Below, piece after piece: positions 23,084-51,832 of a DNA stretch of 64,000 nt. The translations under genes were made by a program, and so were the position numbers. Within the stretch, counting starts at the first letter, position 1. Each line of letters begins with the position of its first letter. The notes beneath the pieces were generated by a model. That model saw nothing but the letters and a program-made list of their open reading frames with translations. It searched no databases and had not been told where the DNA came from. The stretch is from Ruditapes philippinarum (taxonomy: Eukaryota), in the NCBI RefSeq assembly GCF_026571515.1, contig NW_026866180.1, positions 186,001 to 250,000 of the forward strand, written 5' to 3'.

Positions 23084-26000
23084 ATGGCGGGAAAACAAGT
23101 GACGAAACAGGGTTCTCAAGAGATTCCTCATATACAATGTGCCGAGGATATATCACTGTTAAGTTTGCGACAGCTAAGTGCTCTAGCAAAATCTTGGGTT
23201 GTAGATGTGTCAGGACTTGGACAAAAGAAAGACATAGAGGAAAAACTGATCAAATTCTGGATGAGTCACAAGAAAGAGGAAAAGTCCGACATTGTAAGTC
23301 AATCATGTTTTACTAGGAGTTTTAATATAAAATGTGCTGAAGCTTTATCACTGTTAGTTTTCAGACAACTAAGCGCTGTAGCAAAATAGGTAAAGTTGGT
23401 GTGTCAGGAGTAAAATCTAAAGTTGGCTTAGATGACATAATAATCTATTTTTGTTTAGAATATAAGGGAACTTCCGACAATGTACTTTCATCATGTTTTA
23501 TTGTTTGTTTTTGAATAAGTAAAAGGTGTTTTTTCACGACGTCGCTTATTAAGTGTCATCACTTACCTCGGAGCAATTGCCACAACAACAACAAAAATGA
23601 TTATTCAAATTACATGAATCAGAAGACCTAAAACTGACACCATTGATAATTTGACACGACGGTATTTCTAATAATAAGAGCTTTTTAACAATATAATGAA
23701 GTTCTGGATGCAACTATTCTGATTTGATGCTCACTTTGTTTTTTTTATGTTTATTTTGATAGTGTAAAATGAAAAGCATATTTCCGCCTTTTTCTCAAAG
23801 CTGGCTATATTTGTATTTTGTCCTTTGCATATTTTGTACCTTAGTGTACTCCTTTGAATGTAAACCGTTACATAAGGATACACTATCGAGAAATTGATTG
23901 AGGTAAATGTCTAAAATCTTGTAAGAACGTTTCAGTATCGAACGATGTTGTTCTGCCTCTATGAAAAAATATGGACATAGTAAGTAATAAATGTTCAGAA
24001 ATGCACAATGGCTAGACCGTTCCTTAGCATCTTTATTTGTAGGAAAAAATAAGTTTTTATTATTAAATGTTAAGAAAGCTTTAAAATTTAACTCGAGCTA
24101 CATTCATATATTAAGATCTAGTATTTTAAAACCTAAACTTGAATAAATGAGGGTGTAACAACATTTACCGTGAGATTGTTGATTAAAGTTTTACAGATAA
24201 TCGACATGTCTGGTCCTTGTGTAGTCTTTTTACTTTTTGCTCTTTATTAATTTTGTAAATAAATGAATAAGAATGGATTTGCGTCATCTGTTGAAATTTC
24301 GCACGGAATCGACCTGGTGATAATTCATAATGTTCTATAAATATATATTTTCTAAGATATTAAAAAACAAATTAAAACTATGTAATTCATAAGTAGGACA
24401 TTATAACCACTACGTAGGAGATAAGATGCCGAATTATGATCACTTTTTTCATAGATATTTGCCTTATTGATTGAATTTGTTGTTGATAATTGTTCGCGTG
24501 TGTCATATGACAGAATAAAGTTATAGCCGATGCCGATTCCTTGTATGGTCAGTAAGTTTTTGTTCTTTAAACGTTTAACTGTGAATTTAAGCTTTTCTAG
24601 GACCAAAAAATTTTTTTCCCTCCAATATTAGTTCAAGAAATTAGACCGAGAGTGATTCAAGCTTTCGTTACAATATCGTTATCGCTTAGTCAAATCACAG
24701 TTTATCGTTCGGATGCACATTATTATATAATTCCTTGCATCCGAACTCAAAACAGTGATTTTATTTAGCGATAAAACCGCTGTGTTTGATGTATGATTTC
24801 TTAATTAATCTTTATATACATAATCAGATGTATCAAATTGCGATAAATGGAATCACAAAGATACAGAAAAACAAAATATTAATAACAAAATCCACCCAAA
24901 ACGGCAAAATTTGAAAATGCTGCAGACTCGTTCTCATTGCGCCTCACACTTTATTGACTTGAACCTAAATGTTTTTTACGCCCCATAAAAAATCTTTATT
25001 ATACTAGTAATATTCACAATGTTCTTTCGGCTGTAACTTTGCTATCAATGCTTCCGTTAAATAGCTGTCTTATTTATTTTTATGATTCTAATGATATTTC
25101 AGTCACTTTGTACGCAGCCAAAAGTACACCTTATAAAATGCTTCATTTGAAAACTTTAGATAAAATACAATACATTTTATCTAATGTCCATTCATATTCA
25201 TTAAATCTGCAGGACATAAACCGACAAAGCAAATACCATGTATACAATAAACACAACAAACAAAATGCAGAAGTAAAGGAAAAGAATGTTGATAAGAAAA
25301 TTAAACTGTTTTGAACACCCAGGAGACATGTATAAACAGACATGGTACCTGAAAAATTAATACGAAACTTCAAGAGAATAGGCAAATAGTAGATAAGGAA
25401 CATAAATCATAATTTATTAAAATCTTATAGAAACAAAAACACAACAAATTGGAGCAGCAGCAAACAAAACAAATTAAAATAGTTTTAAGCTCGTCAAACA
25501 TAGTTAATTCGATGTTGTTGATTGCAGACATAAATTCAAGCTTCATTTGCAAGAGCGTATGGACAAATTAATGTATGTAACACAACTATATCAATAAAAC
25601 ATATATGTATTGTGTGTGTTGCATCCAAGTATAAACTCACACACACATCATATCTGCGAATAAACTTTCATACAGTAACAATAACGATATTTGATATTAA
25701 AGGCGTGGCTTAATCTATATTGTAGACTTGCATACTACAGTTAGGTTGACCAAAATGTGTTACAGACTTGTCTATTCAATAATTCAATATTTCATTAACT
25801 TCAGTGGGAACCCCCTGATCTTGCTAGTGCCTTCAAGGAGCATCAACAGACACGACAAAAATTGCTCGAGAAGTACCGGAAAGCTGAGGCATTGTATGTA
25901 AACTTCACACCAAAAATAAAAGCAAATATTGAACTGTCCTTTCATAGTAAGTCATTTACAAATCTAATAAAATTATAAAGAACAATTTCTGTAGATCAAA

Positions 26001-29000
26001 AACACTTATGATTTAGTTTAAAATTATGTTTGTACGTTTTGAATTTATTCGATTTAAGTTTAGATAATTTTAAACTTGATAACTGAATAAAAGCAGTCTA
26101 TCTGTAATCCAAACCTAAACTTTTATTTAATATTACCTTATTTTAGACGTCGTGTGTACACTAATCAAAGAGAGAAAAGACTCGTTGAAGTCGGGAGAAT
26201 GTACGATAGTTATAGCGGGAGAAGTTGGTGCTGGTAAAACAAGTCTTCTGAACTTGATTCTAGAGACACAGATCTTCCCAGTCGATTCACTCAAGTGTAC
26301 CAACACTATTCTAGAAATACGAAGCAGTGAGAAGAAGGATGCTATTTTCTACTACAAACAACAGCTGTCAGACAGCGGCGAAAGAGAAAGAAAAGTACCA
26401 CCGAAGATTATTAGCATGAGTAAGTTACAAATACGAATGTATCAATACATATAAAGTAAATGTATAACACTTAAATACCAACCGCCAATATTAAGCGAAT
26501 GATGGGTGATTTTTAAGAAACTTTTGTTCGTGAAAATGCTAGAATGTTATTACGACCAAGTGAAAGCGAAACAATTCAGAGAAAGTCCTATGGATAAACG
26601 TAGAGATAGTGAATATATCAGTTTGATTAATATCAGAGCATTAATGTTTCAGAGAGTCTGAATGGACTTCAAGAATTCAAGGACTGTGTTGCGGAGTATG
26701 ATCAATCGGATGACAACCCTTACGACCGATGTGAGGTGTTTTACCCATTCAAAACACTCAGTGTAAGTAACTGCATGTAATAATAATAAGTATTGGCAAC
26801 TTGCAGATATTCAAAAGTGACACGTGACAGAACATTTCTTATATGTTGAATTACACTTTATGTTTCATAAGAATGTCTTGAAATAGTGCGCTTATGTTAT
26901 AATCCTTTGTGTAAGACAAAATAGGTGTAAATGCATATCATGCCTGCATCAATTATTTATTATAATGAAAAATACTTTATGTGGTATTTTTACTTTCATC
27001 GAGAGTGTCTTGATATATTTGTAATAATTTGATTTTAGAAAGGCGTGGTGATTGTAGACACTCCAGGTATAGAAGGTGGGAGTAATGTCGATCAAAGACT
27101 ACAAACATATCTCTCGAGAGCGTTTTGCTTTATCTACGTCATCAACACGAACGCTGCAGGAGGCTTTCAGCAAAGCAGGGTCTGTTAACTTTCAAATTTA
27201 CCAATTAAATCTTGGTACTTTCCTGCAAGATATTGTCAGATAAACATTATTGATTAACCGATGTAACTAAAATTGGACTATTTCAAACGAAATATTTCTT
27301 ACATATAACACTGGTTTAAAAGCAACGGGAAATATAACACTTTTTTCAAAGCAACAACAAATATAACATGTAATGATGAATATTATTTCGTCTATTAATC
27401 GACTTGTACCTTTTAATCTACAGCTCGGCCATTTGTTAAAAACTGTTGTCAACAGTAGCGAAGATTTCAGCCCTGAAGCGTTCCTATTCATCGGTAATAA
27501 ATGGGAACATGTACCCGAAGGAGACCGCGTTGACGTGCAAAAAGAAATCTTTTACAAGCTGAATCAGGTGTATCCTGGGATACGACAAACGCAGATACAT
27601 TACATGTCTGTAAAGAAGGTTAGTGTGTTACTTGAATAAACAAATTATAGATGGTATCATTGTTATGAAAATCTGGAAACAAAGTGATCCCTCGGAAGCA
27701 TTCATCACAACAAAATTACAAGAGAATTGCAGACTCGGTTTGGTTGAGTCTGTTCATTAGAGATACTGATTAAGTGCAACATCCTTCACGCCCCCTAGCA
27801 CCGGCTTGAGCGGTACTCAATTCTCAACACTTAATAGTGTTGGCATCAATGATCCCGAAGGACCAGAAAAATATAACAACACTGAAGTGAGGTACGGGGC
27901 AACTTTTTACAGCTGCCACACAGCACTTGACACTTGCTGTTGTGAAGTATAAAAATCTGGCTGAACTCCCAATTAGGTGTATGCACTTCTACATTAATTT
28001 GAAAGAAAGAACGATTAAACTAACTTGTTGACATGTATTTTTATGTAATTCTCACATAATTATTTTTTTCTGTCAAAGTCATCAATTTCACAGCATCTAA
28101 GTACTACTAAGTACTACAGGATATTCAGATATAGAAAGTAGTTCCCCATTAATTGACGACAGCATTGTAACCTTTTACAATGGCCTTTAAACTTTTAAGC
28201 ATGACAGTGTTATTAAGGAGGCGATATGTTGGCCGACTTGAAATGACATATGGTTTTACATTATGGCTTTGAAGTAGTCTTTTGTTACATTTATATTTAT
28301 TATTATTGAGATATTTAGGCATGTTATTCTGAAAATCAATAAATACGACTGACATTGACCATTGCATTATTATTAATGTAATGCGGAATGATGTCAAGGT
28401 TGGTTCGGCATATCAATATATTTTTTTGTAGAAGCCCTTGATGTTCTCACATACGATATACCCTAGTTCAATTAAATCGTATACCGGTATCTCTGAAAAC
28501 AAGAATACAAACAAACATAGACTATAAATTTAAGATAAATATTTCTTTCAGTCGGCAGAATTCAAAATGAACTACGAAACAAAATTAGAAGAACACAAGA
28601 TTCTAATGTTGAAGGTATCCCAGCTTGTACCAAGCAGTCTCAGACAAGGAATGGTGTCAAATTACTGGTAAAATATATACAACGTCATTTCAAAATGCAA
28701 AATATGATTAAACCTCAGAGTTCAAGTTACCTTTATCTAAATTTTCTGCTCGCACCGGCTTGAGAGGTACACAATCAATAAAAAAGTCATATCTTTATCA
28801 TCATAATTTTATTTGTAATAATAATTGTTATGTACACGAGTAGTCTAAAATATACCATGTAACGTCTTATGATAAACTAGCAAAATTCTCGCCATATGGT
28901 TGATAAGATACAAAACCTCACTTCCAACACTTTGCGTATTATTTTATTATTTCACAGGTGGCTTTCTTCTTTCCTGTCACGATCATCTTATCTCCTTCGC

Positions 29001-32000
29001 GTGACAAGCGTACAGCAGGCGATGACACGTGATGAACTAGACAGACAATTTGAGGGCCTCCGTAAACACATGGAAGATCTACAGGTGATTAGTATGATAC
29101 CGCGTGATATAAACTTTGTTGTATGATCAGATTATACATTTATATTAGAACATGAAGTAATATCATACTTGTTTCTCAGGACAAATCCTCATGATGTTTG
29201 TATGAACGAGAATAATATATCGATTTCTGAGTCAATGGTTCATTTTGCGAAATGACATATATTTTACAAAAACAATATACATGTATCTTAAACATTGTAC
29301 GAATTCTTATGTCAAACAGCATTCATACACGGCTATTCCAATTTACTTTTTAAAGGCCAATTACTTAGACTACACATGTTTAAAAAATAAAAACAAAATA
29401 TCGATGCATATGCATTTTAGAATGATATTGTGTATAAATATGTATATATTGTAGTATTATTATTTAGTAAATACATTAAACAATTCCTTTTGTAGAAGAA
29501 TACTGGCGAGAGTATCGAACGACTTCGGATCAAAGTAGAATATGAAATAAAAAGAATTACATCAGATATTCAAAACGTACTGCAAAACCGAAACTTCTTA
29601 GACAGGTAAAATGAACTACTAATCTGTTAATGTCTGTAGTTAAAGACGCGTCACAACATCAGTAATGTTAGTAATATTTTAACTAAAATAGTCCAGTATT
29701 AGATGATTTTTTAGCTCTATTATGTGATGTCAGCCGAAATGAAAATATATGTAATTAAATGTGTTTTTTAGTGAAACATCACTGATACATTTTTTAAATA
29801 TTCGTATGAAATGTAAAAGTAATTTCCTTTGAATTGACTGTGTAGAATATGTAATTGGGAAGACACTAATGAATGCCCCAAGACTGAGAAAAAATGGAAG
29901 AGCATTGCCGATGCCGCTGCTGTAAAGATATCAGACAGAATATCACGTGAGCTTGATGGCTGGCAAAGACAGAACAGCATTCTCCGTGTCCTTGACAACG
30001 AAATCATTGGAGTTTTCAGCAAAGAACTCGGGTTGATGGATGACCAAGTGAAAGAACTTGAAGGTAAACCAGTCAAAAGCATATTACTCTAAAGGCACAA
30101 AAATCATATTGACCACTTTGTGGAGCTCTGCGTTACAATGGAACGCAAGACAATCAAATATAATTTAAGTGTAAAATGTTCTTGAAATAATTACTTAAAA
30201 ATACACAACAATAATGACAGACAGGATTACACTAATAAACATGATAATTCTATTTAAAGAAGTCTATTTATGCTTAGTTTGGGCATTGTCAACATTACTG
30301 ACGAGTTTGGGGAACCACATTTAAAATAGAGAAAAACAGAATCCTTAAAGAAAGTCCAACACAACACAATTGAATATGTTGCAGGCTCCAAGACCGTTTA
30401 TCTTTTAAGGTTATGTAATGCTAATATCCATCTATTACAGACTATTTGGTCAAAAGCCGGAGAGGCAATATGTGTAAGACAATGCGTATAGTTCCTGTAA
30501 AAGCCTTGTTTGCAAAGAAGAAGAAAAAGGTAGAGAAAACATATTCAACACTAGGTGGCGCTGTCAGTTGCGTTGGCATGCTAGACACCGATAAGAGAAA
30601 TGTCAGAAGAATATTCAGGTAAGCAAAATACTTTAAAGAAAAAATAATGCTGTTTAAAAAACATTGATTATTGAAGCATGTACTAAACTTTCAAGCAAAC
30701 AAACTTTTGGACAAAACGCACGGCAAAATTCTATTATAATAAAAAATGACCTATTCATTTAGGTTTTTTGTATTTCTTCTGACTCTTCACTGATTGTAAA
30801 ACATTTAGGACACTACCGACATATCAGATAGAAACAATGTTATAGATAACCAGAGATACTTTACACAACGTCCTTTTTGTACGTTGTAAGTCAAACTGAT
30901 TATTTTAAAGCTTATTTGATGACTTTTAAGCTTTATCGGTGGAGAACCACTGAATTTCTGTAAGCTAACTAGATAGCTTCTTCATAATAATGCAAGAATC
31001 CGTCTCTGGCCGGATTCAAGGGACAAGCGGTCCAAAGTCAAAGACTTTATCTAACTGCTCATGAACAGACTTTCACAATGTCGAATTGATTGAGCCGATG
31101 AAAATACTTTGTATAAAGTAGCTTACTTGAAGAAATTTCACTCAATATATTAAAAGTTTAAAACGAAATTAACCATTGGCTATTTGATGCATGGCTACTT
31201 GTGGTACTTTGCAATTTTAGGCATGTACGATGTACAATTGTCACATGACACTTTATTTAAAGACATTCCGTTCAAAATTATAGTTAAAACGAGATTTACA
31301 AATTTCCTGTCGTAAATTTTCGTTTTGCACGTTGTACAATAGTCATATGAGGTACACATCATGATATCTTACTCGTTACATATAGTTATTCTTAATTATT
31401 AGCGAACTTGGAGAAATATTGAAACAACCCAATACGTGTCATTTACACAATTAAATAAACATCTGACTTTATTGTAACAGAGATTTTAATGACACAACGA
31501 AGGCAAAGAAGATGTCAGAGGCGACTATACTGTATATAGAAACAATACTGTCACATAAAGAATTTGGCTGGAAATTTAGAAGATTCTTTGATCATTACTT
31601 TAAAGACATTGATGAAGCTGCGAAAATAATTCCTGGATTTCTTAAGGTGAGTAGAGAGAATAAGAAAAAATGAGGTATATTAAAGATGAGCATAATATTA
31701 TCTTAATCTATTGAATTATCAGGACTCGTTCTTATAAGATATATACTATAATTGTGTTTCAATGGTATAGGCTTCGTGCGTGATGTATGGTATTATAGTT
31801 TTTAGACCTTTTTATTGAATATGTGTTAGACTTTAATCGTACACCCAAATATGCTAAGTGCGGAAACTGGAGTGCAGATATTTGTTACCCGCACTCTAGT
31901 TACCAGGCTGCCTGTTGGTAATGGCAAAAGAGCATGCGCGTCGATTGGCTTCATTTTTTCTGGATCTATCTTATTATGGCGACAGGGAATGGTATGACGA

Positions 32001-35000
32001 TAAAAACATCATATTCAGATGATCGTATATTGGTTACTTTTTTCAGGGGTTTCAAATTGCTACGACAGGGAACGTGTTGTTACTTCATTTCCATGATCGT
32101 CCATGAACAGGCTCAATCAAATCGAGCCTGCAACAGTTTCAACGATGTTGTTTTGTGCGTTCTTTAAGGATTTGTCATTTCTCTGTATTGTACATCAAAG
32201 CAATGCTGACTGGTTAAAGCTTGTAATATAGACAAAGAGTGATAAATTCAATAATAGATATTTGATTTCATATGATGTTAGATACTTATATATATCATTT
32301 TTCTCATATAGCATTATTCTCACACAAACAATTATAACCATAACACACGAAAATAAAATAAACGACAGGACCAACAGCAACAACAAAATGAAAACTAAAA
32401 AAAAAACAAAAACACCAACCAATCGTTTCAAATGAAATATGACTTTAAACTATCATTATTCTAGCCACAATTACCTTTTTAAGAAAGTGTGTATTTTCAA
32501 AAATATCTCCTTCTGCCTCGAACAAACATCAAACAAGAGGATTTCACAAATAAATTGCTTAAGATTTTATGTTTTGCGAAAATTATCGGAAAAAACTGGC
32601 TTAAATGGCCGCTCTACTAGAGGAATATTAACTTTATGATATAATGATGATTTACAGTCCTTGGATTAAAATAAACTGTAGGATCAATCAAATTATTTCA
32701 CCCCCCCCCCCCCAGTTAACTGTAAAGCATTATATTGCCCGGGTTTTGAGTGAAATGTAAAGAACTAAAACAGGTTAGTTTGTTATCATAGTCATATGTT
32801 ATCTTTTCAGTGTGTCGACCGTTGTAATGATCGATGAACCTAAAGAAATTATCTGATATCCCATAATCAATATAATTTAACTTTAACTCTACCTTTTAAC
32901 TCTACTGTATATGCTTGTTTTTTATAACTATTCGTTTGTATCCATTTAATATCTAAGATATGCTGTAATGAGCATATAGCCTATATATATTGTGTAACCG
33001 CCTCCGTGGTCGAGGGGTTAGAGTCGATGACTTCTAATCCAGTTACCTCTCTGGCGTGGGTTCGATCCCCGGGAGATGCTTTGGTAGTTTAGCGCGGAGG
33101 AAGGTAGTCTAGTACTGGTGTAACTCTCCAAGAACGATGGTTAGGAAACTACCCGCCTATATGACTGAAATATTGTTGGGAAAAGGCGTAAAATGAAACA
33201 AACAAACAAAATATATATTGTGATTGAATATTTTGTTACATAGATTTAAAATTGTTCTACAATACTTACGCAATTTTTACAGTAAGTGTACCAAATAACA
33301 TTTTACTCAGACCCATATCTTCCTGTCAATGCTGCTAAAAGGGCTGTCCCCACAATATCAAAATTATCAGAGGCTGCAATAACTAATGGTAGAAAGTATT
33401 GATGCAACTTCTTTCAAATAGAACTGGCTCTCTGGGAAAGGTATTGTTAAATAACAATCTGAAATATTCAAAAACGAATAACAGGAAACCATTCTTTCTT
33501 TTAAATGATAAATCTCATTGACAAGTAATTCATCAAGTTCACAGTTGAATTGATACTGATTATTGTTACATGAACGATTGGGGGAATAGAAGAAATGTGT
33601 CTTGGAATCGTGATTGTAGTTAAAAAAATCAGTTATATAGATAGATCTTATACACTTTTTGCTGTTAAATAATTAAATGACAAACATGTATCTGACATTT
33701 GCATTTGATAAACAAATTTAACAATTCCTTAAAAACGTAATGAATGAAAATAAATTATTTATCTACTGAAATCATGTAATAATTGCAAATATCTAAAATG
33801 ATATATATTTGCTTGTTAAAGGCTGATCTGCAGTTAACGGTACCGGCAAACATTAGAAGAAATGTTTTCCGGGAGTTAGAAGATGATCTTTTGATGTATA
33901 AACTCCCTGAAAAACTCCCTGATTTAGTGAATGAAAGTGCCGAACTTCTTGGACAACTTGATATCTTATACATAAACGACATCATGAAGTTTGACTTTGA
34001 ATTATCTGAGTTAGAGTGGCAAAATAAAGTGGAGGTGGGAAACGGAAGATTTACCAAAGTGTACAAGTCCAGACTTAAGAGAAATAACAGACCAATTGCA
34101 ATAAAGGTACATGTAATTCATTAGTAACTGTTATACTTTATTGAGATACTTGTGAAATATAACAACAAAGATCACAAAGACAGAGTGCCGCTCACAGAAC
34201 TCATCACTTGATGTATTCAAGTCACAATTAACCACCGTTAAAACATCCATCAAGGCAACGAACAAGGGCAAATATTAGAGGGGCAAATAAATAAATACTA
34301 CCAATAGTTGAATAGGATTGATGTTGAAACACTCTTTCATTAATCAAGTCAGTGATTAATTATTTGAGACCATACAGGATTTACTTTTATTATTGATGTT
34401 ACAACTGTTTATTGTATCATAGTTTGAGGACCTTTCTGTTGAAAAAGTGTCAGAGTTAAATCGTATACATATACATGCACAGTGCGGTAACTGGAGTGCG
34501 GGTATCAGTTACCCGCACTCCAGATCATGCCCGTTGATTAGCTCATTTTTGCTCGGGTTTACATATTGTGACGGCAGAGAAAGGGAAAGCGGCAGAAATA
34601 TCATATTCAGATTCTCGATCATTGGTTACTTTTTCCCGGGGTTTAAAAAATATGACAACAGGGAACGTGTTTTTATGATAATACAAAAGAGAAAGAACAC
34701 CAAAACACTCGGCAATCTGATTTATACTCGGGGGCTACGCCCCCTCGTACAAATCAGATAGCCTCGTGTTTCGGTGCTCTTTCTATTACTTGATAATAAA
34801 TATTATGAAAAGATATCAAGTAATAAATACTGATCTTGAATGATTTTTGTAGATCGCAACTGACGAAGTCGACCAATCAAATGTCAGGGAAATCCTTACC
34901 GAGGACAGAATCATGAGGTGAAATAATTTTCTATGCCTTTACAATGTAAAACGTACTGTACTCGTTAACTTTTTGACAACATGTAAAAAACTTGTTTCGA

Positions 35001-38000
35001 ATGTGCTGTCTTGATTTTTACCATGATATTAAAGAAGATTGAATGTATTTTGTTGTATCCACCCGTATATCTGACATCGGTACAAAAGTTGCCCAATATA
35101 GTTTTATCTATTCAAGTTAAGCGCGGCATAACAGATCTACAAACAATATCAATTAACCGTCCTCTTTTGTTATGTATATCACTCAGACGTATAGAATTAA
35201 AGTAAAGATTTCCCCCATATTTTCAGGGATTTGAAACATGCTAATATTGTCCGGTACTACGGTGCGTCTAATATTAAAACAGTAACAGGTTTACAGTGGA
35301 TTATGGTGCTGGAGTTATGTCAGACAACCCTCAAACAAATTTATACTGGTAATTTTTTTTTCCTTATCAAGTGATAAAATAACAACAGTATCAGTTTCAT
35401 AAGCTCAGATCCACTTACAAAATTCCATTTTATTCAGTTCTGCCAATTGTTTTCTCGTTTAGGGCAAAAGCATTCTTTTACATGGGGACCATACGCCGTT
35501 TTTCATGGAATGGCACTACTATGTCACATTGAAGGTTCCATGATGACCGCCGTATGAACACATCTGCGGATGTTTCTAAATTCAAAATTTCACCATTTTC
35601 TTGTTAAATGTTGAATTCTGCTTAAGCCGGTTCTAGGGGGCGTGGACGGTAACTTGCACTTTCCAGTACCGTCCATGAACAGGCTCAATCAAACCGAGCC
35701 TGCAACATTTTCAATTTTGCCGTGTTGGGCTTTCTTTAGGGATTCTGTATTTATCTATTTTAACATGACGCCCGACAAACGGTTACTTACTGTAGATATG
35801 ATGGCCATGACTCTAGAGGCTTTCTTTTACGGAGAAGTTGCTCCAGAGATGTCAAGGTGCTACCTCCTTGACAAGTATAAATTTCTAATGTTGCCAGGAG
35901 CTCTAAAATATCGCAAGGAGCCAGGAGAGGATGATACAACAAGGGCACGATTCCATAACTTTAAATTTCTAAAAGCAGTAGCAGCTGGGAAGAAACCATC
36001 ATTTGCCGAGATCCAACAGTTACAGGCATTACAATCATTTACAAATTATCAAAATTTACCACTGGATCCAAGCACCTTCACCACACCACTTCAATTGCAA
36101 AACGGGGAATCATATGTGGATCAAAACTAAAGTGATCAATAATAGTGAAAAGCTAAACATACAACATTATGAAAAGTGCCTAAAATTATTAATTTGTTGT
36201 GTTAATATTACACAGACATAAAAACTTATAGTTTTAATAAAAAAAAAGAGTTGTGTTTTAAAGTTACAATTAATATTTCTTATGTTAAGGTTTTCTAAAG
36301 AACATATATTTAAATACACGCATAGAAGTGAAATAGTAAATGGAAGATAATGACTGGAATTTGAATCGAATACAGAACAGAAAACCGTATGCATTCAGTC
36401 AAACATAAGTTTAGATTTGATGCAACGAAAGAAAGACTGCTACTAATAGAAAGTGCAAATACTATTTTCTTCCAAGTGCATAATTATGTGGATAAAAATA
36501 TGAATTTATTATACCTTCTTGAGTGCAAAACTAAATTGTTTTGGTACACAACTGGCAAACTTATGATAGATCAGCCGCTAGGAGCAATGTTATATTAAAA
36601 TATATAGGGGCGTCTGTGGCCGTGTGGTTAATATAAGGTTGTGGACTTCAAACCGCTTGCCCCTTACCGCTGTAGGTTCGAATCTCAACAGGGACTTTGG
36701 ATTCGTTCATGTGAAGAAGCTATCCAGCTAGTTTACGGAACGTCAGTGGTTCTACTCAAGGGCCCGTTCGTGCCTGAAATAATGCACGGAAGGGCATCTG
36801 AGGTATTCCTCCACCAGTAAAGCTGAAACGTCGCGATATGACCTATACTGTGTCGATGTGACGTAAATCCCAAAACAAACAAAACAAATTTAGAATATAA
36901 TTAGTATTGTTCCCACCAATGTTTACTGAGATATTTATTTCACATACATGTATATGGCATTTTATTGTCCTTAGTTGCTTTATATACAATAAGGAATTGA
37001 TATAATTTTTGACCTTGAAAATAAAGCTTGATGAAGTACGATATCTACTTGATAAAAAATATATTGGACTCTAACAGGCAACGGCGCTATATGAGGTGAG
37101 ATATGCATTTAATATGAATGTTTTCTTCTCTGGAAATGGAAACAAATGTTACTAATCACAGTATTTGGTTTGTCAATGCATTTGATTTGGCATTGATACG
37201 CTAATGATTTCTATTGTATCATCACATCGTTCAAACACTGATTTAAGTGCATTGGTTATTTTTTATAAGGTGTGAAGTAATGTTTTTTTTCATTTTATTA
37301 CTACTTTTAAGCATTTTACTTATTATAAAATTTTATTTCATAAAAAGGGTAAAAGATTATATAAAATAAATAAATGAATTACAGGAAGCGAACGAAATGA
37401 GCGCATGATTCCTGGTTGTTTAGGCAGTGACCACCCACGCTTTGCTGAGGCAGCCAAGTATATGCTTGACCATGCCACCCAGATTTGTACTGGCCTGGAC
37501 TACATTCATGGAAAAGGATACACCCACAGAAATATGAAGCTAGAAAAAGTTCTGGTAAATACACACTGCTTAGTTTGACTTAGGGTTTAGTTTGAATCTT
37601 TGAACTTGCCAGCTATTAGATCTTAGCAGCTTTATAAATTATATTTTAAAGAGTGTTAAACACAAACAGCACATTTTCAATTAATCTGCATGAATATTTC
37701 ATTATAAGTTTGATATGTTATCGCGTTACTCAAATTACAAATACATTTTAGAAATGAAGAACGCACATGCTTCAAAAAGCTTTAAACACTGTTAAACTAT
37801 AATTGTAATTCATTCAGTGATGTCATTTATTTATTGGAAAAGGAAATAAATACAAACGTGTCCATATGTTTTATAAGATCTTTAAAATAATTTTACAGTT
37901 GGCAGAGGGAAATATTATCAAGATTACAGATGTAGGCGTCACCGAGGTAACACAGATGCTTTGTAAAACTGCAGATGGTTCCCCAGCTTATATGGCACCG

Positions 38001-38330
38001 GAAGTGCTGCTTTCGAATGAGATCCAAACAAACAAAATTGACGTTTACAGTTTTTCTCTAATATTCTGGGAAATGTGGTTTGGGAAGGATGTAGCTGACG
38101 AAATCAACAAGGATTTAATCGGGTATGGTTACCATGGAAATGCAATGGAATTACTCAAATCTCAGATTGCAAGGACAGATGGTTGGCGGCCACCACTGAA
38201 TTCACCAAAACATCCGCCAGAAATACTTACTGAAGTATTAAAAAGAGGATGGGCTTCCGATCCTGAAAAGAGGCCAAGTGCAAATGAGTTTGGAAACACT
38301 TTAGAACAGTTTCTGAAGAACAACCTCTAA
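23084..38330 (+). CDS. Copy C: complete 17-exon, 1019-aa SAP/HeH-like + dynamin-like GTPase + helical stalk + pseudokinase protein (DSTYK/Dusty-like)
   Basis: Exons 23084-23293, 25805-25946, 26147-26419, 26653-26762, 27039-27179, 27424-27618, 28552-28667, 28958-29084, 29496-29605, 29846-30063, 30441-30618, 31481-31646, 33822-34106, 34853-34917, 35227-35348, 37385-37554, 37899-38330. All introns are GT-AG, phases are consistent, the total is 3060 nt and no internal stop was seen. Motifs: G1 [10 protein letters not shown]2 PVDSLKCT, G3 DTPG, G4 NKWE; kinase [20 protein letters not shown]. Confidence 0.9.
23320..23482 (+). pseudogene. Degenerate tandem duplicate of coding exon 1 inside intron 1 of copy C
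   Basis: Translates [21 protein letters not shown] against exon 1 [21 protein letters not shown]. It ends TCCGACAAT|GTACTTTCATCATGTTTTA, mirroring TCCGACATT|GTAAGTCAATCATGTTTTA. The same duplicate occurs in copy D (about 43935-44102). Confidence 0.75.
24679..24774. repeat. Imperfect palindrome (about 39-bp arms), MITE-like
   Basis: TTATCGCTTAGTCAAATCACAGTTTATCGTTCGGATGCA pairs with TGCATCCGAACTCAAAACAGTGATTTTATTTAGCGATAA. Confidence 0.75.
27690..27875 (-). mobile_element. Relative of the multi-hairpin repeat family in opposite orientation, in intron 6 of copy C
   Basis: TGCAGACTCGGTTTGGTTGAGTCTGTTCAT...CACGCCCCCTAGCACCGGCTT is a diverged reverse complement of the family core. A closely related + copy is at about 45855-46030. 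Confidence 0.65.
31858..32190 (+). repeat. Hairpin-containing repeat shared with 34481-34670, ending in the multi-hairpin family 3' motif
   Basis: GTGCGG(A/T)AACTGGAGTGC...TTACCCGCACTC...CATATTCAGAT...ATTGGTTACTTTTT...CAGGGAACGTGTT occurs in both places. The 34481 copy has a 14-bp stem, CTGGAGTGCGGGTA/TACCCGCACTCCAG. Confidence 0.6.
32995..33210 (+). mobile_element. tRNA-derived SINE with a 12-bp target-site duplication
   Basis: A box TGGTCGAGGGG, B box GGTTCGATCCCC, (AAAC)n tail, and TSD ATATATATTGTG at 32983-32994 and 33211-33222. The empty site is in the paralogous intron of copy D (about 51370-51390). Confidence 0.85.
34690..34784. repeat. Imperfect palindrome (about 44-bp arms) with a GCTACGC apex, MITE-like
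   Basis: AGAAAGAACACCAAAACACTCGGCAATCTGATTTATACTCGGGG pairs with CCCCTCGTACAAATCAGATAGCCTCGTGTTTCGGTGCTCTTTCT. Confidence 0.8.
35483..35761. mobile_element. Multi-hairpin interspersed repeat (long copy) in intron 15 of copy C
   Basis: Matches 48651-48928 along its length. Stems: TCATGGAA/TTCCATGA, ACATC/GATGT, AATTCAAAATTT/AAATGTTGAATT, TGGACGGTA/TACCGTCCA, CAGGCTC/GAGCCTG. Confidence 0.8.
36607..36888 (+). mobile_element. Full-length tRNA-derived SINE, resembling molluscan V-domain SINEs
   Basis: GGGG start, A box TGGCCGTGTGG, B box GGTTCGAATC, central GAAGCTATCCAGCTAG...GAAATAATGCACGGAAGGGCATCTGAGG...CCTCCACCAGTAAAGCTG, and an AAAC-rich tail. It is absent from the paralogous intron of copy D. 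Confidence 0.85.
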
Positions 38331-41710: not shown

Positions 41711-43713
41711 TATTTTACTTATATTCTTTCTTAAAATATGTTATTTTGGTTATCTTTACGTATATTATTTAAAGATCCTGTATGTTTTGTGATTGATATT
41801 GTTACTGTATGTATACCATACTTGCAAAAAATTATATATGTATATAATTATGCAAATAAATTTTTTTTCAAACATCCAAGAATATGTAAAATGTGTACTG
41901 CAAATATCTGTGCACAATAAATTTAATCAATAAATTATATGCATTCATTTCTTATTGGAAAATTTGACTTAGAATTTATAGAAAATAAATTTCTAATTAC
42001 CTCCCTTTATTAATTTCTAATTACCTCCCTTTATTTACATGAAATGTTTGATTCGGTAATATCTTTATAAATAATGCTTATTGGAACTTACAATATTGAC
42101 AAATCTTAATTTGAGCAACATATTTATGAAATAAAACCATGAAAAAATGTGTTACAGGATCTTTAACGATAATTTAGTATCTAAGCTTGATCCTGAATTC
42201 AAACCTGCTGGAAGCGTTTGCCCCTTCGGGGATTCTTATTTTCTTTTGGCTCTTGGTCAAGAGCCAGGCTAGCAAGGGTATCCGTGCAGTCTGGCCAGAC
42301 ACTTTACAGTTGGCTGACTTATTTTAAATCTCTTAAATAATAATAGACAGTACCAAACATGGAAGTTTGACAAATCCCGAAGGTTCAGTGAAAGACGGTT
42401 AACTTGTTTGAAAGAAAAGAAAAACATCGTGTTTACACTATTATTTCACTATGGTACATTTGAATTTATTTATAACTGGTTTATAATGTTTTGATACAGG
42501 CCCTTGTTACAATTAATGATTTTAACAATATATACGATATCGTATTTTCTAAACATTCCGACATAGAAAAGGTCATATGTCGACTTTTCAGCTTTAATAA
42601 TTGAGAAACCTCAGATGTTCCTCTGTTCACGGAGGTCCTAATGTATGCATGTCGGTTAATATTTGTGACTTTGTATTTTATAATTATTTCTATAATGTTA
42701 TAATTATTTCTAGCAATTAATTGTATTATTTTAAAATTGATACGTCAAATACCGCATAAATGAGAATGTTGTATCCTCGGTTTGATTTTAATGCGTTTTC
42801 TGGACAGTGCACACATTCTAACGAAATGAAAAAAGATGTACCTTAAATCATAAAAAGCAGAATCTCTTTTTCGATCGCTTGAACACATAGAAAGACTTCA
42901 GGGTGTCTAAATATGTCTAGGACATGGACACACAGACAAGGTCAATTATATTGCCATCAATTGTAAGTACATACACATTGAGAAGTATGCTTGTTATAAA
43001 TTATGTCTTTTATTCATACAGGACAACCTGAGTTTTTTAGCTTCAATGAAAAGAGGAGAAACCGTGTTAACGAATTAGTGGCGGTGGCCAAAAGGTTAAG
43101 ATGACCGCGTTTCAACTCAAGTTTAACCAGGACCAAGAATATTATGTTTTTTCCTTAAAGATATACTATGCTCAAATTTAATTTTTAAAAATATTAATAA
43201 TTGCTACACAGTCTCTTTGTATGTATAAAATAAACATGTTTGGAATTTATTTAAGGTAGAAATGATATGTTTTGAACTCTTCACACTATATGTAGTCACC
43301 ATATGAATATATAGTGTCATTAAAAAAAACCTGGCAGTTTTTTTAAGAAAAGACCAATTTTACTTAACCCGTAATAAGGAATGCAGCTTCCCATACATAG
43401 TTTATTCATTATTTTATTCAAATTAAACATATTCAGTAAGAATTTCATGGATTTCAAAGCATTTCTAAAATAAAAATATTTTACCAAAAAATGAGCATAG
43501 TATATCTTTCAATATTAGTTTTAAGAATTGAACCCAAGAGTGATACAATTGAACTTAAATAGATATCTTGAAGTAAATTGTTCGGTAACAAAGCTGACTA
43601 CCAAATATACAATGTGTTTACACGCTACGACATGCTTATGGGGCTTTATTATACAACATCAATTGTTTTCTGTTTTTAATATCATAGATAATTCCTCGCT
43701 ACTCAATTAACAA

Positions 43714-46700
43714 ATGACGAAACAGGAGTCTCAACAGATGCCCAATATACAATGTGCCGAGGATATTACACTGTTAAGTTTGCTGCAGGTCTGTGCTCTC
43801 GCAAAATGTTGGAATGTGAATATGTCAGGACTTAGGCATAAGAAAGACATAGAGGAAAAACTGATCAAATTATGGTTGAGTCACAGGAAAGAGGAAAAGT
43901 CCGACTCTGTAAGTCAATCATGTTTTCTTAAGAATTTTAATAAAAAACGTGCTGACGCTATATCACTGTTAGATTTCAAAATGCTAAGTGATGTAGCAAA
44001 AAAAAAAGATGAAATGTCGATGGGTCAGGAGTAAAATCTAAGATTGGCTTAGAGGAAATAATAATCTATTTCTGGTTGAGAAATTAGGGAACTCCCGCCA
44101 ATGTACTTTCATCATGTTTTATTGTTTGTTTTTGAATAAGTTAAAGGTGTTTTAATCACTTATTTAGTGCCATCACTTACCTTGGGGCAATTGCCAAAAC
44201 AATAACAACAATAATTAGAACAAAAACGATTATTCAAATTACATGAAGCAGAAGACATAAAAAGGATTCCTCTGATAATTTGAAACGATGGAATTTTTAA
44301 TATTTTTTAGATTTTTTCAACAATTTTATTCTAGACGCAGACCTGGCTATATTTTTATAGTGTCTTCTTTTTGTATTTCAGTGTATTCCTTTGAATGTTA
44401 GCCTTTGCATTAAAGAACATGTTCACTGCCAAGATATTGGTCACATTCCTACATTCCAACAAGACATTTTTCGTACTTGGCGCTGTTGTTTTGCCTCAAG
44501 TAAAAATATGGACATAGATTGTAATCATTGTCTGTAAATGAAAAATTTTCAGAACGTTTCTTATATTTTAAGGTCTTTGCTTGCAGGAATAATTAATAAA
44601 TTTCTGTGTTAAATATTAGGAAAGAATCATTAACTAGAACTATATGCATAGCATATCTAGTGTTAAAAAAACATAAACTTGAAATATGTGGGTGCAATGC
44701 CATTTAACTTGAGATAACTTATGAATGTTTTAAAAATAACTAACATGTCTGTTTTTTGTCTTTGAATCTGCTTTGGGTGATTTAATTTGTTGCTGATCTT
44801 TATTTCCTTGTGTCATATGATAGAATAAAGTTGCAGTTGATGCTAATTCCTAGTATGGTCAGTTAATTTGTTGCTTGCCCAAAATTAAAAAGCATAACAA
44901 CCGCATATAAAAGAAGAACGCAATAAACAGTAATATATTATTCATGTTGTTTTTATACTTTGTTAGCAATATATAAAGAGAGCCTTTGCATAATATGTCT
45001 GCATTAATTGTATGTATTTTATGCATGACTAATCCGCTATATTTATAATGTAAACTTTTATTCATTCATTGTTATTTTGATTTGATTTTAACACGTTATA
45101 AACAAATATTCTGCTCCTTAGAGACAATGTGCATTGCAGCTGCATAGATATACGTTTTAAGACTTGTTTTAAGACGATACAATGATACCAGTTTATTTTG
45201 TTTATTATACATTGTTTGATACTTTGAGTATTGACTGTCTAAGTTAAGAACTTTCTAAATTGATACTTGGTTATTTTTCCAGTGTAAAATCTGCGTAGTT
45301 TGGATGGGGATATATCATTTTTAAATAATTCTAAAACCTATGGTGGTTGCTTTGTGTTATGTCGTATTTTTTCATCTGCGAGGCGCTAGACGAAAACACG
45401 AAATAACGGCACAATGATGACTTTGTCGTACTTTCGCTCCGCTTTTATTGTTGATTATACAATATAGTAATTATAGCTCATACGCAGGATTTTATAGCTT
45501 CTATATAGGATTATAACTATATATCAAGCCTAAGTAGGGATTTATATCGAAGAGTTATAAAATACTACATTGAAGATATTAAAACCTACATGTATTTAAG
45601 TTTTTTAACCAACGAACGAGATCTACATTATGATTGTATGTCCTTATTTTAAAGAAAAAAAGTCCTACGTAGGAGTTATAAACTTCTAATTACGCTTTTC
45701 ATTCTAATACAATGAAGTAACAAAGTAATAATTAGGCTTTTCACCTTCTTTACGTATGAGTTATAAACCCCTTATAAGTTTTATTTGTCTTTTACCTAGG
45801 ATTTGCATAGTCCTTATTAGGCTTCATGTCGTACTACATTTCAGTGTTGTATTTATTTCTAGTCCTTCGGGATCATTGCGTCAATTACTTTTAAGTGTTG
45901 AGAATTGAGTACCGGTCAAGCCGGTGCTAGGAGGCGTAAGAGACGTTGCACTATTTCATTATCCCTCATGCACAGACTCAATCAAACCGAGTCTTCAATT
46001 TTGATGTAATTTTGCTGTTTATAATGCTTGCGATGAATAACCTTTTCCGGATATTGATAAGTCCTACGAACTTCATAAATTCACACCAGGCTGCGTCCTA
46101 ACGAAACTACAACAGGCGCAAAAAATCCATTCTTAGTCTTCTAGTTACAAAATACACGTATATAAAGGTCACAAAACTTAAAGGTAATTATATAACAAGC
46201 ATTTCTCTGCAAATGTTTGTTTATGAAAACTTGAATATTTTGAACATTAACAAACCATTCAACAAAATATCATCACAGAATTACGACATGTGAGAAGTAA
46301 AATTGACTTTTTCTTAGGATTGTGTTTCTAAATTTGCAAACGACAAAGTAAGTATCATTGCTAATACATGTATGTGTATTGAATTTAACTATATATACAT
46401 TCATGATTTACATTGCACATAAATATGTTGAAACATGGTGTTAAATTCAATCAACCAACTAAAAAATATAGAATATAAATAATCTCTACAAACTTAGAGT
46501 TATAAAAATGTTTAATTAAAGTTTTACCTTTTATAGACACGTCAAGTCAATGTTTTAATATTTCTTTTATTTAAGTGGGAACTAACTTATCTTGCTAGTG
46601 CCTTCAAGGAGCATCAAAAGACACAACAATCATTGATCGACATATACCTAAAAGCTGAGAAAGTGTACAATTATCTCGCACACCATATAAAATGGGAGTA

Positions 46701-49700
46701 CAATAGTAAGTCATTGACAAATTTAATGAAAGTTACCAGGAACAATTTATGAAGATTTAAACTCTTTCAATTTCGTTTTAGATGGTATTGATTTGCTTTG
46801 AATTTTGTTATGGCTTTGCATAGATAAATTTAAACTTTGTCACTGAATAAAAAGTATCCACTCGAACATAAAAACGTTTTTCTTATAAACTTATTTTAGA
46901 CGTAAGTACACTTATCAAAGAGAAAAAAGACTCGTTGAAGTCGGGAGAATGTACGATAGTTATAGCTGGAGAGGTTGGTGCTGGTAAAACAAGTCTTCTG
47001 AACTTGATTCTAGAGACACAGATCTTCCCAGTCGATTCACTCAAGTGTACCAACACTATTCTTGAAATACGAAGCAGTGAGAAGAAGGATGCTATTTTCT
47101 ATTACAAACAATAGCTGTCAGACAGCGGCGAAAGAGAACAAAAAGTACCACCGAAGATCATTAGCTTGAGTGAGATACAATCAAACATAAATCTATCAAT
47201 AGATATATAGAAATTGTCAAACACTTAAATCAACCGCTTATATTCCAATCATTATGAAAGTATGACTAAATCGACTATTTTTTAACTTACCAGGTATCAA
47301 ATAATTATGTAAATACCTGTTATTTTTATGAAAAGTGATGTCAAGAAATTTTTTTTATAACCCTGCAGAAATTAGTTATTTTCAAATAAAATATGCATGC
47401 TAGTCGAATGAAAGATGCTTTTTATGAATATTTTTACGTAAAAAAGATAGAATTAAGGACCATGTCAAAGCGAAACAAATTCAGAGCAAGTTCTATGATT
47501 ATACTTAGAGATAGTGAATATTTTAGTTTGATTATTTTAGGGCATTTATTTTACAGAGAGTCTGGATGGAACTCAGGAATTTAAGAACTGTGTTGACCAA
47601 TCGGACGACAACCCTTACGATCGATGTGAGGTGTTTTACCCATTCAAAATACTCGGTGTGGGTAACTAGTACTTGAACTTATTGTCAACTCGCAGATATT
47701 CAAAAAATGTGATGACAGATTGTATTAAACATTAAATATCACTTAATATTTCATAAGAATGTCTTGACATAGTGTCAAAGATTTATTTTTATCACAAATA
47801 CATTTTTTTGATACCTTAAATTTCATCGGAAATTCTGGACATCATTGTCTTAATTTGATTTCAGAAAGGCGTTGTGATTGTAGACACCCCAGGTATAGAC
47901 GGTTGGGGTAATATCGATCAAAGATTACAAACATATTTTTCCAGAGCGTCCGGCTTTATTTACGTCATCAACATGATAACTGCTGCAGCAGATCAACAAA
48001 GCCGGGTTTGTTAACTTTGTAATTTGCCAATGAAATAATTTGTTTAGTTTTGTTTCTTGGTACTTTTCAGAAAGATATGTATTGATAAACTGTTGTTTAC
48101 TGTTTGACAACTAAAAAGACTCTATCCGTTAAACGGGATATTTCTTACAAATAACATTGTAGTTAAGTAACAGCAATAATAACCTATAATGACTAGTTTT
48201 CGTCTGTGAATTTACTTGTACCTTTTACTACAGCTGCTCAGCCATTTGTTGAAAACTGTTGTCAATAGCAGCGAAGATTTCAGTCCTAAAGCGTCTTTAT
48301 TCATCGGCAATAAATGGGAGCATGTACCAGAAAGAGATCGCGTTGTCGTACAAAAAGATATCTTTTACAAGGTGAATCAGGTGTATCCTGGTATACGACA
48401 GATGCAGATACATTATATGTCTGTGAAGAAGGTAGGTGTATTTACTTGAATTAACATAGTTGTTATCGTTGGTGTGAACTTCCATTTCGGTATTTAGTCT
48501 TCTCCATTATATTGAAAGTACGCTTTAACTAGCATTTACTCTTTGTATTCGAATTCAAGAATAATTGTGTCGTTTAGGACGCGGTTATTTTGATTGCCAA
48601 CCTCAAATATACGGATAGGGTTTACATTTGCATACTGGCGTTCTACAACTTGGGGACCATACGCCGCTTTTAATGGAGTGGCACGGAAGTGTCACATTGA
48701 AAGTTCCATTATATACGCTGTATGAACACATCTGCGGATGTTTCTAAATTCAAAATTTGCCATTTTATTTTTAAATGTTGAATTCTGATTAAGTCTGTGC
48801 TAGTGGGCGTGGACGGTAGTTTGCACTCGACAGTACCGTCCACGAACAGGCTCAATCAAACCGAGCCTGCAACGTTTTCAATTATGCCGTTTTGGACTTT
48901 CTTTAGGGATTCTTATTTTCTCTATTTTTGAAATAATCTTTTGTTACTTTTATATTTATTATTATTTAGATAGACATTTAATTCTGAATGTCCATAAATA
49001 CGACTGACATTGACCAATGCATAACTGATAATGTAATGCATAACTCATTTACCGATATTATATGTAAAACCCTTGATGTTTTCACATACCATGTACCTTA
49101 ATTCAATTATTTCGTATATCTCAGACAGAAATGAATAAAGCGGAATTCATAACAAAAAGAGAACCAAACAAACAGAAACTATGCATTTAATATGCATATT
49201 TATTTCAGGCGGCAGAATTTAAAATGAAGTATGAAACAACATTAGAAGAGTACAAGATTCTAATGTTCAAGGTATCCCGGCTTGTATCCAGCAGTCTTAG
49301 ACAAGGAATGGTGTCATATTACTGGTAAAATACAACGTCATTTCAAAATTCAATATAGTATTAAATGTTCTTTATCTATATGTTAAGCACTTCATAAGAG
49401 TGATCATGTAATGTCAAATAATACACTAGCAAAAAATCCGGCTCATGTTTGAAAGATATGCATCGTCATTTCCATCACTTAACGTATTCTTTTATTCTGT
49501 CATAGGTGGCTTACTTTATTGCTGTCACGCTCATTGTATCTGCTGCGCGAGACATGCGGACACCAGGCGATGACACATGAGGAACAATACAGAGACCCCA
49601 AGTGGCTCCGTAAACACTTTGACGATGTACAGGTGATTAATGATAGCGCGTAATTAAAGCTTTGTCATGTGATAAGATTTATTAAACATTTATATTTGAA

Positions 49701-50180
49701 CATAATTATATGAATATCTTAACAAATCGTCAGAATGTTTGTGTAAACGAGTATGATATATCGATTTCTAAGTCTAGGATATTTTTGTTGCGAAATAACA
49801 TACGCTTTACAAAAGAACTGTATAAGTAGATATTTCCGCTTTTTGCATGAGGAAACATTAGCGAATCGTGCAAGGGTAGAACTTAATGACAGGTTTATAG
49901 ATAGTTACACTGCAGAAAATTTTAGCGATTTTAATCAATTAGCCAAATTTGGAGCACTACTTGAAACACCTAAGGTGTGTCAATTAACTAAAACTTTGAA
50001 TGTTTCGTAACAGATTTTAATGTCACAACAACTACAAAGAAGATTTTAGATGCGACTGCACTGTGTATATAAACTCTACTGTCACACAAAGAATTTAGCG
50101 GGAAAATGAGAAAATTCTTTGATCGTTACTTTAAAGACATTGATTAAATTGCGGAATGAATTTCTGGATATCTTTAAATG
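43714..50180 (+). pseudogene. Copy D, 5' (SAP/HeH-like + GTPase + stalk) half: disrupted
   Basis: Exons 43714-43908, 46576-46705, 46900-47169 (premature TAG at 47112-47114), 47557-47657 (9-nt deletion), 47865-48005, about 48234-48431, about 49209-49324 and about 49506-49632. Exons 9-11 are absent. The exon 12 remnant (about 50014-50178) has stops at 50070, 50145 and 50157 and has lost its GT donor. Confidence 0.85.
48651..48928. mobile_element. Multi-hairpin interspersed repeat in intron 6 of copy D
   Basis: Colinear with 35483-35761. Confidence 0.8.
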
Positions 50181-51756
50181 AGAGAGGAAATCATAAACAT
50201 GAGGTTTCATAATATCATTATGATATAAATGATTCAGTACTCAATTTTATAACACGTTTCCTCATGACTGACAGTATCTTACTTCTAATAACTGTCAAAG
50301 AAAAACACACTCATAAATGCACATTTAATGACACAAAAATTCGGACCCTCAAGGATTCCACCATATAGCCGCCGATAAGCCGAAATGTTTTCAACCGACC
50401 ATTTCTTTTCCACTGTCTATTACAAGTTTTATTCTACGGTTAGCGCCCATAGTTGCGGCACCAGATCGAAACAAATGTAAGACATGTCTTACAAATAAAC
50501 TCACTCGAATACCATCTTTCGCTTAAATTCACCGCCCAGTCACGGCAAGAATACCTATATGATACATATATTGTTCTACCTTAGATAGTTAGAACACCGA
50601 TATGTGGTGATTTTTTTAAAGAAACTAATGTGTGACCGTAGTTAATGGTAAATAAACCGCTTCATTTAATTTTAATTTGTCACATAACCTATTCACGAAT
50701 TGGATTAAAGGCACTGTGCTGAACTCCCGTAACAGGTTAACAGGTAATGATGAAAATTTGAAACGCTCACATTCTGAACCTTTTTGAAAGAATATATATA
50801 CTACGGATCATAGATTGTTCTTTACAAGACATTGCGGCGTCTTTGATTGCAGAGAGAAGCTCCTGACTGTTTGCCAAATACCTACACAAGTATTTCATTG
50901 AAGGTTCCGTGATAACCGCCGTATACTCATTTCGGATTATTCAAAATCAATTTTTTTCCATTTCATGTTAAATAATGTGTCTGTATTGAATGTCTGTTAT
51001 TCTACATGTTAACATTTTGCCATTCATGATTTTATGTCATTATTTTGTATTGGCACTCGTACTGAAGGTTTTCATGGCGTGAAATCCTTTTGTTTGATAA
51101 CAATTTTTTTCTGAGAGCGCGTGTCAGTATTTTTGCAGCAACCCCTCAAGCCCAGAACATTTAGCAGCACCCTTCCCTTATGGCTAGAGTGGACTGCGTC
51201 ATATGTAATCTTTCCAGTGTGTCGAACGTATATATGATGCATAAAACTAAAGAAATTCTCTGATATCCCATAATCAATGTAATTTATCTAACTACTGTAC
51301 ATGTCTGTCTCTTTATAAATATCCATTTGTATCTATTTAAAGAGAGATACTATAGTGAGCACACAGCTTAAATATATCGTGGGAGAATATTTTGTAACAT
51401 AGATTTAAAATTGTTTTATAATACTGACACAAATTTTTACTGTGAGTGTACCAAATAACCTTCTTCGCAGCCAGTTTACTCAGACCATAATGTATGTTTC
51501 ATAGTTTGCTCAATGCTGCTAAAAGCGCTGTCCCTGTAATATCAAAATTATCAAATGTTGCAATAACTAATGGTACAAAGTATTGATGCAACTTCTTACT
51601 GAAAGGACTGGCTTTCCAAGAACTGAATTGTTAAATAACAATCTGAAATATTCAAAAACGAATAACAGAAAACCGTTCTTTCGATTAAATGATAAATCAT
51701 TGACAATAAGTCACCCAGTTCACAATTGAATTGATACTGATTATTGTAACATGAAC

Positions 51757-51761
<5 letters not shown>

Positions 51762-51823
<62 letters not shown>

Positions 51824-51832
51824 GGGGGGGGG
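51762..51832. repeat. (TG)n microsatellite followed by poly-G
   Basis: About 30 TG units. The paralogous site in copy C (about 33575) has only TTGGGGG. Confidence 0.95.

Follow-up and report, generated by a model that had tools for sequence, protein, structure and literature searches.

Does copy C, a gene that has lost two catalytic residues of its kinase domain and still has an open reading frame, encode a retained pseudokinase, or is it a duplicate in the early stages of decay? Copy C belongs to a tandem array of five related genes (A to E) of the clam Ruditapes philippinarum. The stretch of 64,000 nucleotides analyzed here (the window, at G000:C14667:186001-250000) contains copies B, C, and D and parts of copies A and E (Table 1). 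Members of this family combine a BDLP-like Dynamin_N GTPase with a protein kinase (Pfam Dynamin_N plus Pkinase; PF00350 E-value of 2.7e-16 in copy A).

Gene model and kinase domain of copy C

The exon projection gave copy C a CDS of 3060 nt with a single terminal stop and GT-AG ends at 16 of 16 introns. None of the lesions that mark an unprocessed pseudogene (a lost splice site, a frameshift, or a premature stop) is present in it, and the net length changes are in frame (+3 in exon 3 and +27 in exon 13). The protein is identical to that of copy A at 920 of 1009 residues (91%), and the four GTPase motifs are unchanged (G1, GEVGAGKT, at 26218-26241; G2, KCTNT; G3, DTPG; G4, NKWE). The original prediction described C as the only fully intact copy, which holds within the window. 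Beyond it, however, copies A and E are whole genes with canonical loops. Copy A encodes an uninterrupted protein of 1009 aa that matches public protein P0118 at every residue and has the loop HRDMKLENVL (2346), and copy E is a 1011-aa gene with canonical kinase motifs, including HRDMKLENV, onto which public protein P0010 maps exactly. A genome search with exon 17 found eight close copies, five in the array, two on contig C9113, and one on C5323, of which three (B, D, and the second, minus-strand copy on C9113) are broken as assembled.

Homopolymer-rich, indel-dense patches that resemble poor consensus occur at window positions 12348-12462 (in copy B) and in the minus-strand C9113 copy, and some lesions in these two copies may be assembly errors. 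The public 548-aa model P0163 (window 43693-53227) represents copy D with the stops spliced out; it ends before the catalytic loop and is likely an annotation artefact. The introns of copy C contain short high-copy repeats (window 33000-33210, 34410-34790, 35480-35760, and 36630-36850) over which contig cover is very deep in RNA-type runs. The element at 35.5 kb recurs near 18126, 48650, 55690, and 58824.

Table 1. Coordinates of copy C, its altered residues, and related genes (window positions unless a contig is named)
Feature	Position	Strand	Description
Copy C, GTPase-stalk-pseudokinase gene	23084..38330	+	17 exons, 1019 aa; exon projection from copy E
Copy C exons 1-6	23084-23293, 25805-25946, 26147-26419, 26653-26762, 27039-27179, 27424-27618	+	
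Copy C exons 7-12	28552-28667, 28958-29084, 29496-29605, 29846-30063, 30441-30618, 31481-31646	+	
Copy C exons 13-17	33822-34106, 34853-34917, 35227-35348, 37385-37554, 37899-38330	+	
Dynamin_N GTPase, copy C exons 3-6	26147..27618	+	233/240 residues identical to A, 7/240 differ
Exon 12 (stalk), copy C	31481..31646	+	5 private replacement and 0 silent changes: G636W, L638F, K640R, R644H, R655I (A numbering)
Exon 13, copy C	33822..34106	+	D-like; 5' end remodelled in frame, +27 nt
Exon 16, copy C	37385..37554	+	10-residue catalytic loop at 37525-37554
HRD Asp to Asn, D859N	37531..37533	+	Codon AAT; changed base 37531, GAT>AAT; same base in C9113 copy
Catalytic-loop Asn to Lys, N864K	37546..37548	+	Codon AAA; changed base 37548, AAC>AAA; same base in C9113 copy
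Exon 17, copy C	37899..38330	+	DVG (DFG-equivalent Asp kept), APE, alphaF Asp kept; K882E at 37944-37946
Tract common by descent to C and C9113 copy	~37300..37900	+	93-94% identity, versus 73-86% for other copies
Copy A, exons 13-17	457..3146	+	Gene start ~10.8 kb left of window; intact, canonical kinase motifs
Copy B	7495..18108	+	Frameshifts in exons 15-17; loop HRDIKLKNVL (17268); broken as assembled
Copy D	43693..54868	+	In-frame stops, exons 9-11 not found; loop HRDMKLENVL (53938); broken
Copy E, first exons	59424..64000	+	Continues ~9.7 kb right of window; intact, = P0010
Sister kinase-dead copy (L005)	G000:C9113:394-4119	+	HTNMKPEKVL, K882N; B-like exons 12-15; cut off by contig start
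Canonical GTPase-kinase, head-to-head with four old-type pseudokinase genes (L011, L012, L017-L021)	G000:C3673:50100-124000	minus (canonical gene)	Canonical loop HRDLKLENV
Old-type GTPase-pseudokinase (L014)	G000:C2848:119400-124500		HMELSQDTV, G1 intact
Old-type GTPase-pseudokinase (L022, L023)	G000:C14454:252800-262700		HLDLSMDTV, G1 intact

Translation of the catalytic loop confirmed that HRD reads HRN and that the loop Asn is replaced by Lys in copy C, whereas copies A and D have HRDMKLENVL there. When the HRD Asp and the Mg-binding Asn are both lost, phosphotransfer is abolished. Among other family members with a residue at the position, the HRD Asp is present in 23 of 24 and the loop Asn in 23 of 23, and under the sequence definition of a pseudokinase (lack of at least one of the VAIK Lys, HRD Asp, and DFG Asp) copy C qualifies through its HRD Asp to Asn change. 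In agreement with the original prediction, the kinase of copy C is thus predicted to be inactive; the accessible part of one study likewise states that a change of HRD to HRN "usually abolishes catalysis" and names the loop Asn as a Mg-binding residue (PMC7586955). A weak or atypical activity, of the kind reported as very low for HER3 and JAK2 in their HRN domains (PMC9988210, accessible part), might be argued from the beta3 Lys (34104-34106), alphaC Glu, and DVG Asp that C still has. Such residual activity is unlikely, because C lacks the loop Asn as well as the HRD Asp. The Gly loop of C is altered and Lys 882 is replaced by Glu, and PSKH2, by contrast, keeps the Asn according to the accessible text (PMC7586955). 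As an explanation of the locus, we regard residual activity as very improbable.

Copy C had also been called otherwise intact. The open 17-exon frame, the GT-AG splices, and G1 to G4 bear this out, but other parts of the protein do not. The Gly loop reads VGNGRFTKV rather than LGSGSFAKV (GNGRFT at 34038-34055), a change partly common to D. Exon 13 has gained 27 nt, and exon 12 has its own replacements. Activation-loop Lys 882, present in 25 of 26 other family members, was lost separately by both dead copies (K882E in C and K882N in the C9113 sister). The beta3 Lys, the alphaC Glu, the Asp of DVG, APE, and the Asp of alphaF are present in both. The kinase domain of 294 aa has ≈37 derived residues, and the probability that these would strike at least two of five catalytic residues by chance is 0.12. 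Because of this chance probability, the double catalytic loss, which had been put forward as a sign of retention, is on its count alone not strong evidence of design. The number of altered conserved kinase columns (C, 7/79; B, 8/73; D, 6/74; A, 2/79) looks like decay. The loop of copy C occurs in none of 329 comparison proteins, and a scan of metagenome contigs for exact 25-base matches to it gave 0 hits, which is uninformative.

Authenticity, transcription, and mosaic origin of the altered loop

Both changed bases of copy C recur in the plus-strand copy on C9113, whose exons 12-17 are open (public annotation P0117, a mos-like kinase of 393 aa). Moreover, a 356-nt contig from public run X15 reads through exons 15-16-17 with introns 15 and 16 spliced out. 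Since this contig has one mismatch to C in exon 16, where six other scored copies differ from C at 7-38 sites, it is by its sequence C-type and carries one or both of the catalytic changes. Homopolymer-rich stretches in the vicinity that look like errors (in exon 9 of B and in the minus-strand C9113 copy) might suggest that the two bases are themselves assembly errors. This is unlikely, because the same bases occur on a second contig, within a tract that has diverged by 6%, and the spliced contig, with its single mismatch in exon 16, must have at least one of them. Among the explanations considered, assembly error is the one to which we give almost no weight.

Expression of copy C was another check suggested by the original prediction, and C-type spliced sequence was found in one of the four runs examined, for exons 15-17 only. 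These four are of six runs presumed to be RNA that carry no RNA record, and the double GT-AG splice in X15 argues for RNA. Spliced contigs listed in X16 and X18 have 11/106 and 20/170 other letters, respectively, and belong to other copies, and no spliced contig is listed for these exons in X19. Nine of 24 listed runs hold at least half of the words of 37200-38500, a word match that does not read the codon letters. The start of exon 13 has no contig cover and an exon 12-13 joint is not among the joints listed, beyond which 66 more exist; we counted these observations neither way. Contig depths cannot rank genes, and we therefore claim no C:A expression ratio. Copy C is real and probably expressed.

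The closest relative of copy C changes along its length. Upstream of the gene and in intron 1, C resembles D, and in exons 1-12 it resembles A (80 mismatches over ≈1980 aligned coding bases). From intron 12 to intron 14 it is D-like again, as are exons 13-15, and exon 16 and intron 16 are C9113-like. Because the tract shared with the C9113 copy has itself diverged (21 of 340 sites in intron 16, with further differences between the two catalytic codons), the double catalytic change is, by sequence divergence, old. We infer that copy C was built by unequal crossing-over and gene conversion, which would have combined an A-type GTPase and stalk with exons 13-15 of D type and with an older exon-16 tract that encodes a dead kinase loop. 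The conserved GTPase half of C may have been inherited from a recent A-like donor.

Selection on copy C and competing explanations

Selection was estimated with a branch model (custom GY94 code with a FastTree topology per segment; exons 9-12 were left out) after masking of 22 nt and the remodelled exon-13 start in C and of 11-214 nt in the other copies. For exons 13-17 of C, dN/dS was 0.30, which is below 1 (p=0.0009) and 2.5 times the background of 0.12 (p=0.010), and did not differ from the value of 0.39 for the broken copies (p=0.51). For exons 1-8, dN/dS was 0.28, compared to a background of 0.19 (p=0.36) and to 0.56 for the broken copies (p=0.09). A value near 1, which the original prediction took as a mark of early pseudogenization, was thus not found, yet this outcome is not discriminating between retention and decay, because terminal branches combine the periods that preceded and followed kinase loss.

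Counts of private changes varied along the gene. The GTPase exons 3-6 of C (ingroup pool) have 10 silent and 4 replacement changes (dN/dS 0.11). Exons 13-17 have 11 silent and 19 replacement changes (0.45, CI 0.20-1.05; corrected range 0.45-0.52), compared to values of 0.18 for A, 0.54 for B, and 0.59 for D. Inclusion of exon 12 gave 24 replacement and 11 silent changes for exons 12-17 (0.56, CI 0.27-1.27), like B (0.56) and D (0.82). An earlier figure of 0.85 for the kinase half was rejected, because unanimity among all other copies preferentially strips silent sites. Exon 16 is the only stretch that can be dated to after kinase death. Since then, C and the C9113 sister have come to differ there by 5 silent and 2 replacement changes, with both replacements in the C9113 catalytic loop (binomial P=0.011 versus neutrality, in a post hoc test of one exon), a pattern that points to constraint still remaining.

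The explanation that we prefer, at somewhat less than an even chance, is that copy C is a young GTPase-pseudokinase on which constraint is relaxed but persists, and that it would dilute the kinase output of copy A in co-assemblies. Dynamin-superfamily GTPases function as oligomers. If the clam family oligomerizes as dynamin-like proteins do, C would likely enter A oligomers, because 233 of 240 GTPase residues are identical, and would act there as a subunit unable to phosphorylate, with its kinase fold kept under relaxed constraint. We infer all steps of this mechanism that go past the sequence, and a role of C as decoy, scaffold, or regulator is proposed by analogy. Retention is favored by the occurrence of both bases in a second-contig copy with exons 12-17 also open, by length changes that are in frame in C, in contrast to the broken copies B and D and the broken minus-strand C9113 copy, and by the precedent of family representatives (21 of 64; see below) that are non-canonical yet keep G1. 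Against retention stand the dN/dS of the kinase half, which is like that of the broken copies, and exon 12, with 0 silent and 5 replacement changes, including G636W.

Nearly as likely is early pseudogenization in a birth-and-death array, in which a recent recombination joined an A-type 5' half to a kinase half that was already decaying, so that the frame is open through recency. The mosaic structure of C fits this account, as do the match of its kinase-half dN/dS and conserved-column changes to broken B and D, the broken state of three of eight close copies, and the chance probability of 0.12 for two catalytic hits among ≈37 changes. Moreover, a conserved orthologous C-type pseudokinase was not seen in the other clams compared, and both Mercenaria copies keep HRD and Asn. 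Early pseudogenization is harder to reconcile with the 5:2 split of silent to replacement changes in exon 16 after kinase death (P=0.011), with the open kinase exons of both copies that have the old double change, and with the spliced C-type contig. Copy C could instead have been kept for its GTPase and stalk only, as an extra dose or with different expression, while the kinase is a passenger that must fold and keep frame. We consider this improbable, although it would account for the 10:4 ratio of silent to replacement changes in exons 3-6 (dN/dS 0.11), for an upstream region and intron 1 that are D-like rather than A-like, and for structural kinase residues being kept and catalytic ones lost. 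The stalk exon 12 is eroding too, however, and sequence alone cannot separate this account from that of a young pseudokinase. One genome thus holds intact A, double mutant C, its further-eroded C9113 sister, and broken copies, which allows retention to be tested against slow decay; if C is merely decaying, it is a case of ordinary birth-and-death evolution.

The GTPase-kinase family and known systems

The GTPase-kinase family spans sponges and placozoans to amphioxus and molluscs. In a structure model of copy E (mean pLDDT 80), the top Foldseek match was BDLP (2j69; E-value 9e-16, 14% identity), followed by kinases. A BDLP-like helical stalk fold is seen in this model, and the predicted fold of C is read across from E. 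A sequence search of solved structures returned only kinases among the best 60, and a predicted dimer of the copy A GTPase region with GTP and Mg scored 0.00 with the alignment unused and gave no answer. Among the best 150 representatives of a profile search, 64 cover both domains. The full set of five catalytic residues is present in 42 of these; another, which is partly unaligned, has an intact loop, and the remaining 21 are non-canonical and keep G1 (one without an exact match to the G1 pattern). Ten of the 21 were looked up: four are from amphioxus, and an acorn worm, a scallop, a cuttlefish, a freshwater mussel, Trichoplax, and a sponge contribute one each. When mapped onto a quick GTPase-domain tree of 74 rows, the pseudokinase label requires eight changes, at least four of them forced by well-supported branches, and pseudokinases arose at least four times in the family. 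Copy C groups with A (support 99) inside an otherwise active venerid clade, and this grouping places it outside the old HMEL/HLDL-type pseudokinase lineages. The R. philippinarum genome has six loops of this older type, known as exon matches rather than full gene models, with four on C3673 (HMELKKSTV, HMDLTKDTV, HMMLKKSTV, and HMDLTKDTV; one copy with an in-frame stop) and one each on C2848 and C14454. The GTPase-pseudokinase is a recurring state of the family, which raises the prior for a retained copy C without proving that case.

A broader reading, which is possible but which we hold to be unlikely on balance, is that this undescribed animal family of BDLP-like GTPase-kinases works as active/pseudokinase pairs in one GTPase oligomer, with the partner evolved repeatedly and C caught at birth. 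Pseudokinases are common, but most have an old origin and have diverged far from the active kinases that gave rise to them; if paired oligomers exist, the first steps of kinase-to-pseudokinase conversion would be directly testable, with C 91% identical to its active sibling. A dynamin-like GTPase-kinase family with pseudokinases in about one third of its representatives may matter more than copy C itself. In the literature searched, whose coverage leaves subscription journals and supplements outside, we found no description of this family or its pseudokinases.

Copy C has the architecture and motifs of an uncharacterized invertebrate Dynamin_N plus kinase family (P0118, P0010, Mercenaria P0001 and P0008, "DUSTY-like" Mya proteins, and members from Branchiostoma and Pocillopora), but differs from its active members in lacking the catalytic Asp and Asn. 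The older family pseudokinases (loops such as HMELSQDTI and HLDLSLSTV) are far more eroded than C, usually with the DFG Asp lost too, and sit elsewhere on the GTPase tree. G1 to G4 and the long helical stalk resemble those of BDLP (PDB 2j69) and the dynamin superfamily; unlike BDLP, the clam proteins carry a C-terminal kinase domain, and membrane binding and oligomerization would apply to them by analogy only. The position of C beside A recalls RIPK3/MLKL and IRAK4/IRAK3, in which a pseudokinase stands beside an active relative. Those pairs are old, conserved partners with domains of their own, whereas C arose recently and still has 91% identity to A, and the likeness is one of analogy.

PSKH2, HER3, and JAK2-JH2 have the same HRD to HRN change as C, and PSKH2, described in the accessible parts of two studies as a recent kinase-to-pseudokinase switch (PMC7586955, PMC9988210), is likewise a recent duplicate of a canonical kinase. 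Copy C differs in having Lys at the Mg-binding Asn that PSKH2 keeps (PMC7586955, accessible part), in its fusion to a dynamin-like GTPase, and in its within-array mosaic structure. DSTYK/Dusty clusters were the nearest named ones in a language-model search (0.94), a likeness of features (a long N-terminal region, a C-terminal kinase, and automatic "DUSTY-like" names on the Mya members) that does not imply orthology. DSTYK clusters, by contrast, list no Dynamin_N family, no protein named as a DSTYK orthologue is among the family matches listed, and DSTYK is set apart from RIPK1-7 in the accessible part of another study (PMC9573974). Dead loops also occur in two independent family members, P0276 from a sponge (HRNLNPDNV) and P0241 from Trichoplax (HAHLTLGNI), and the sponge protein has the same HRN as copy C.
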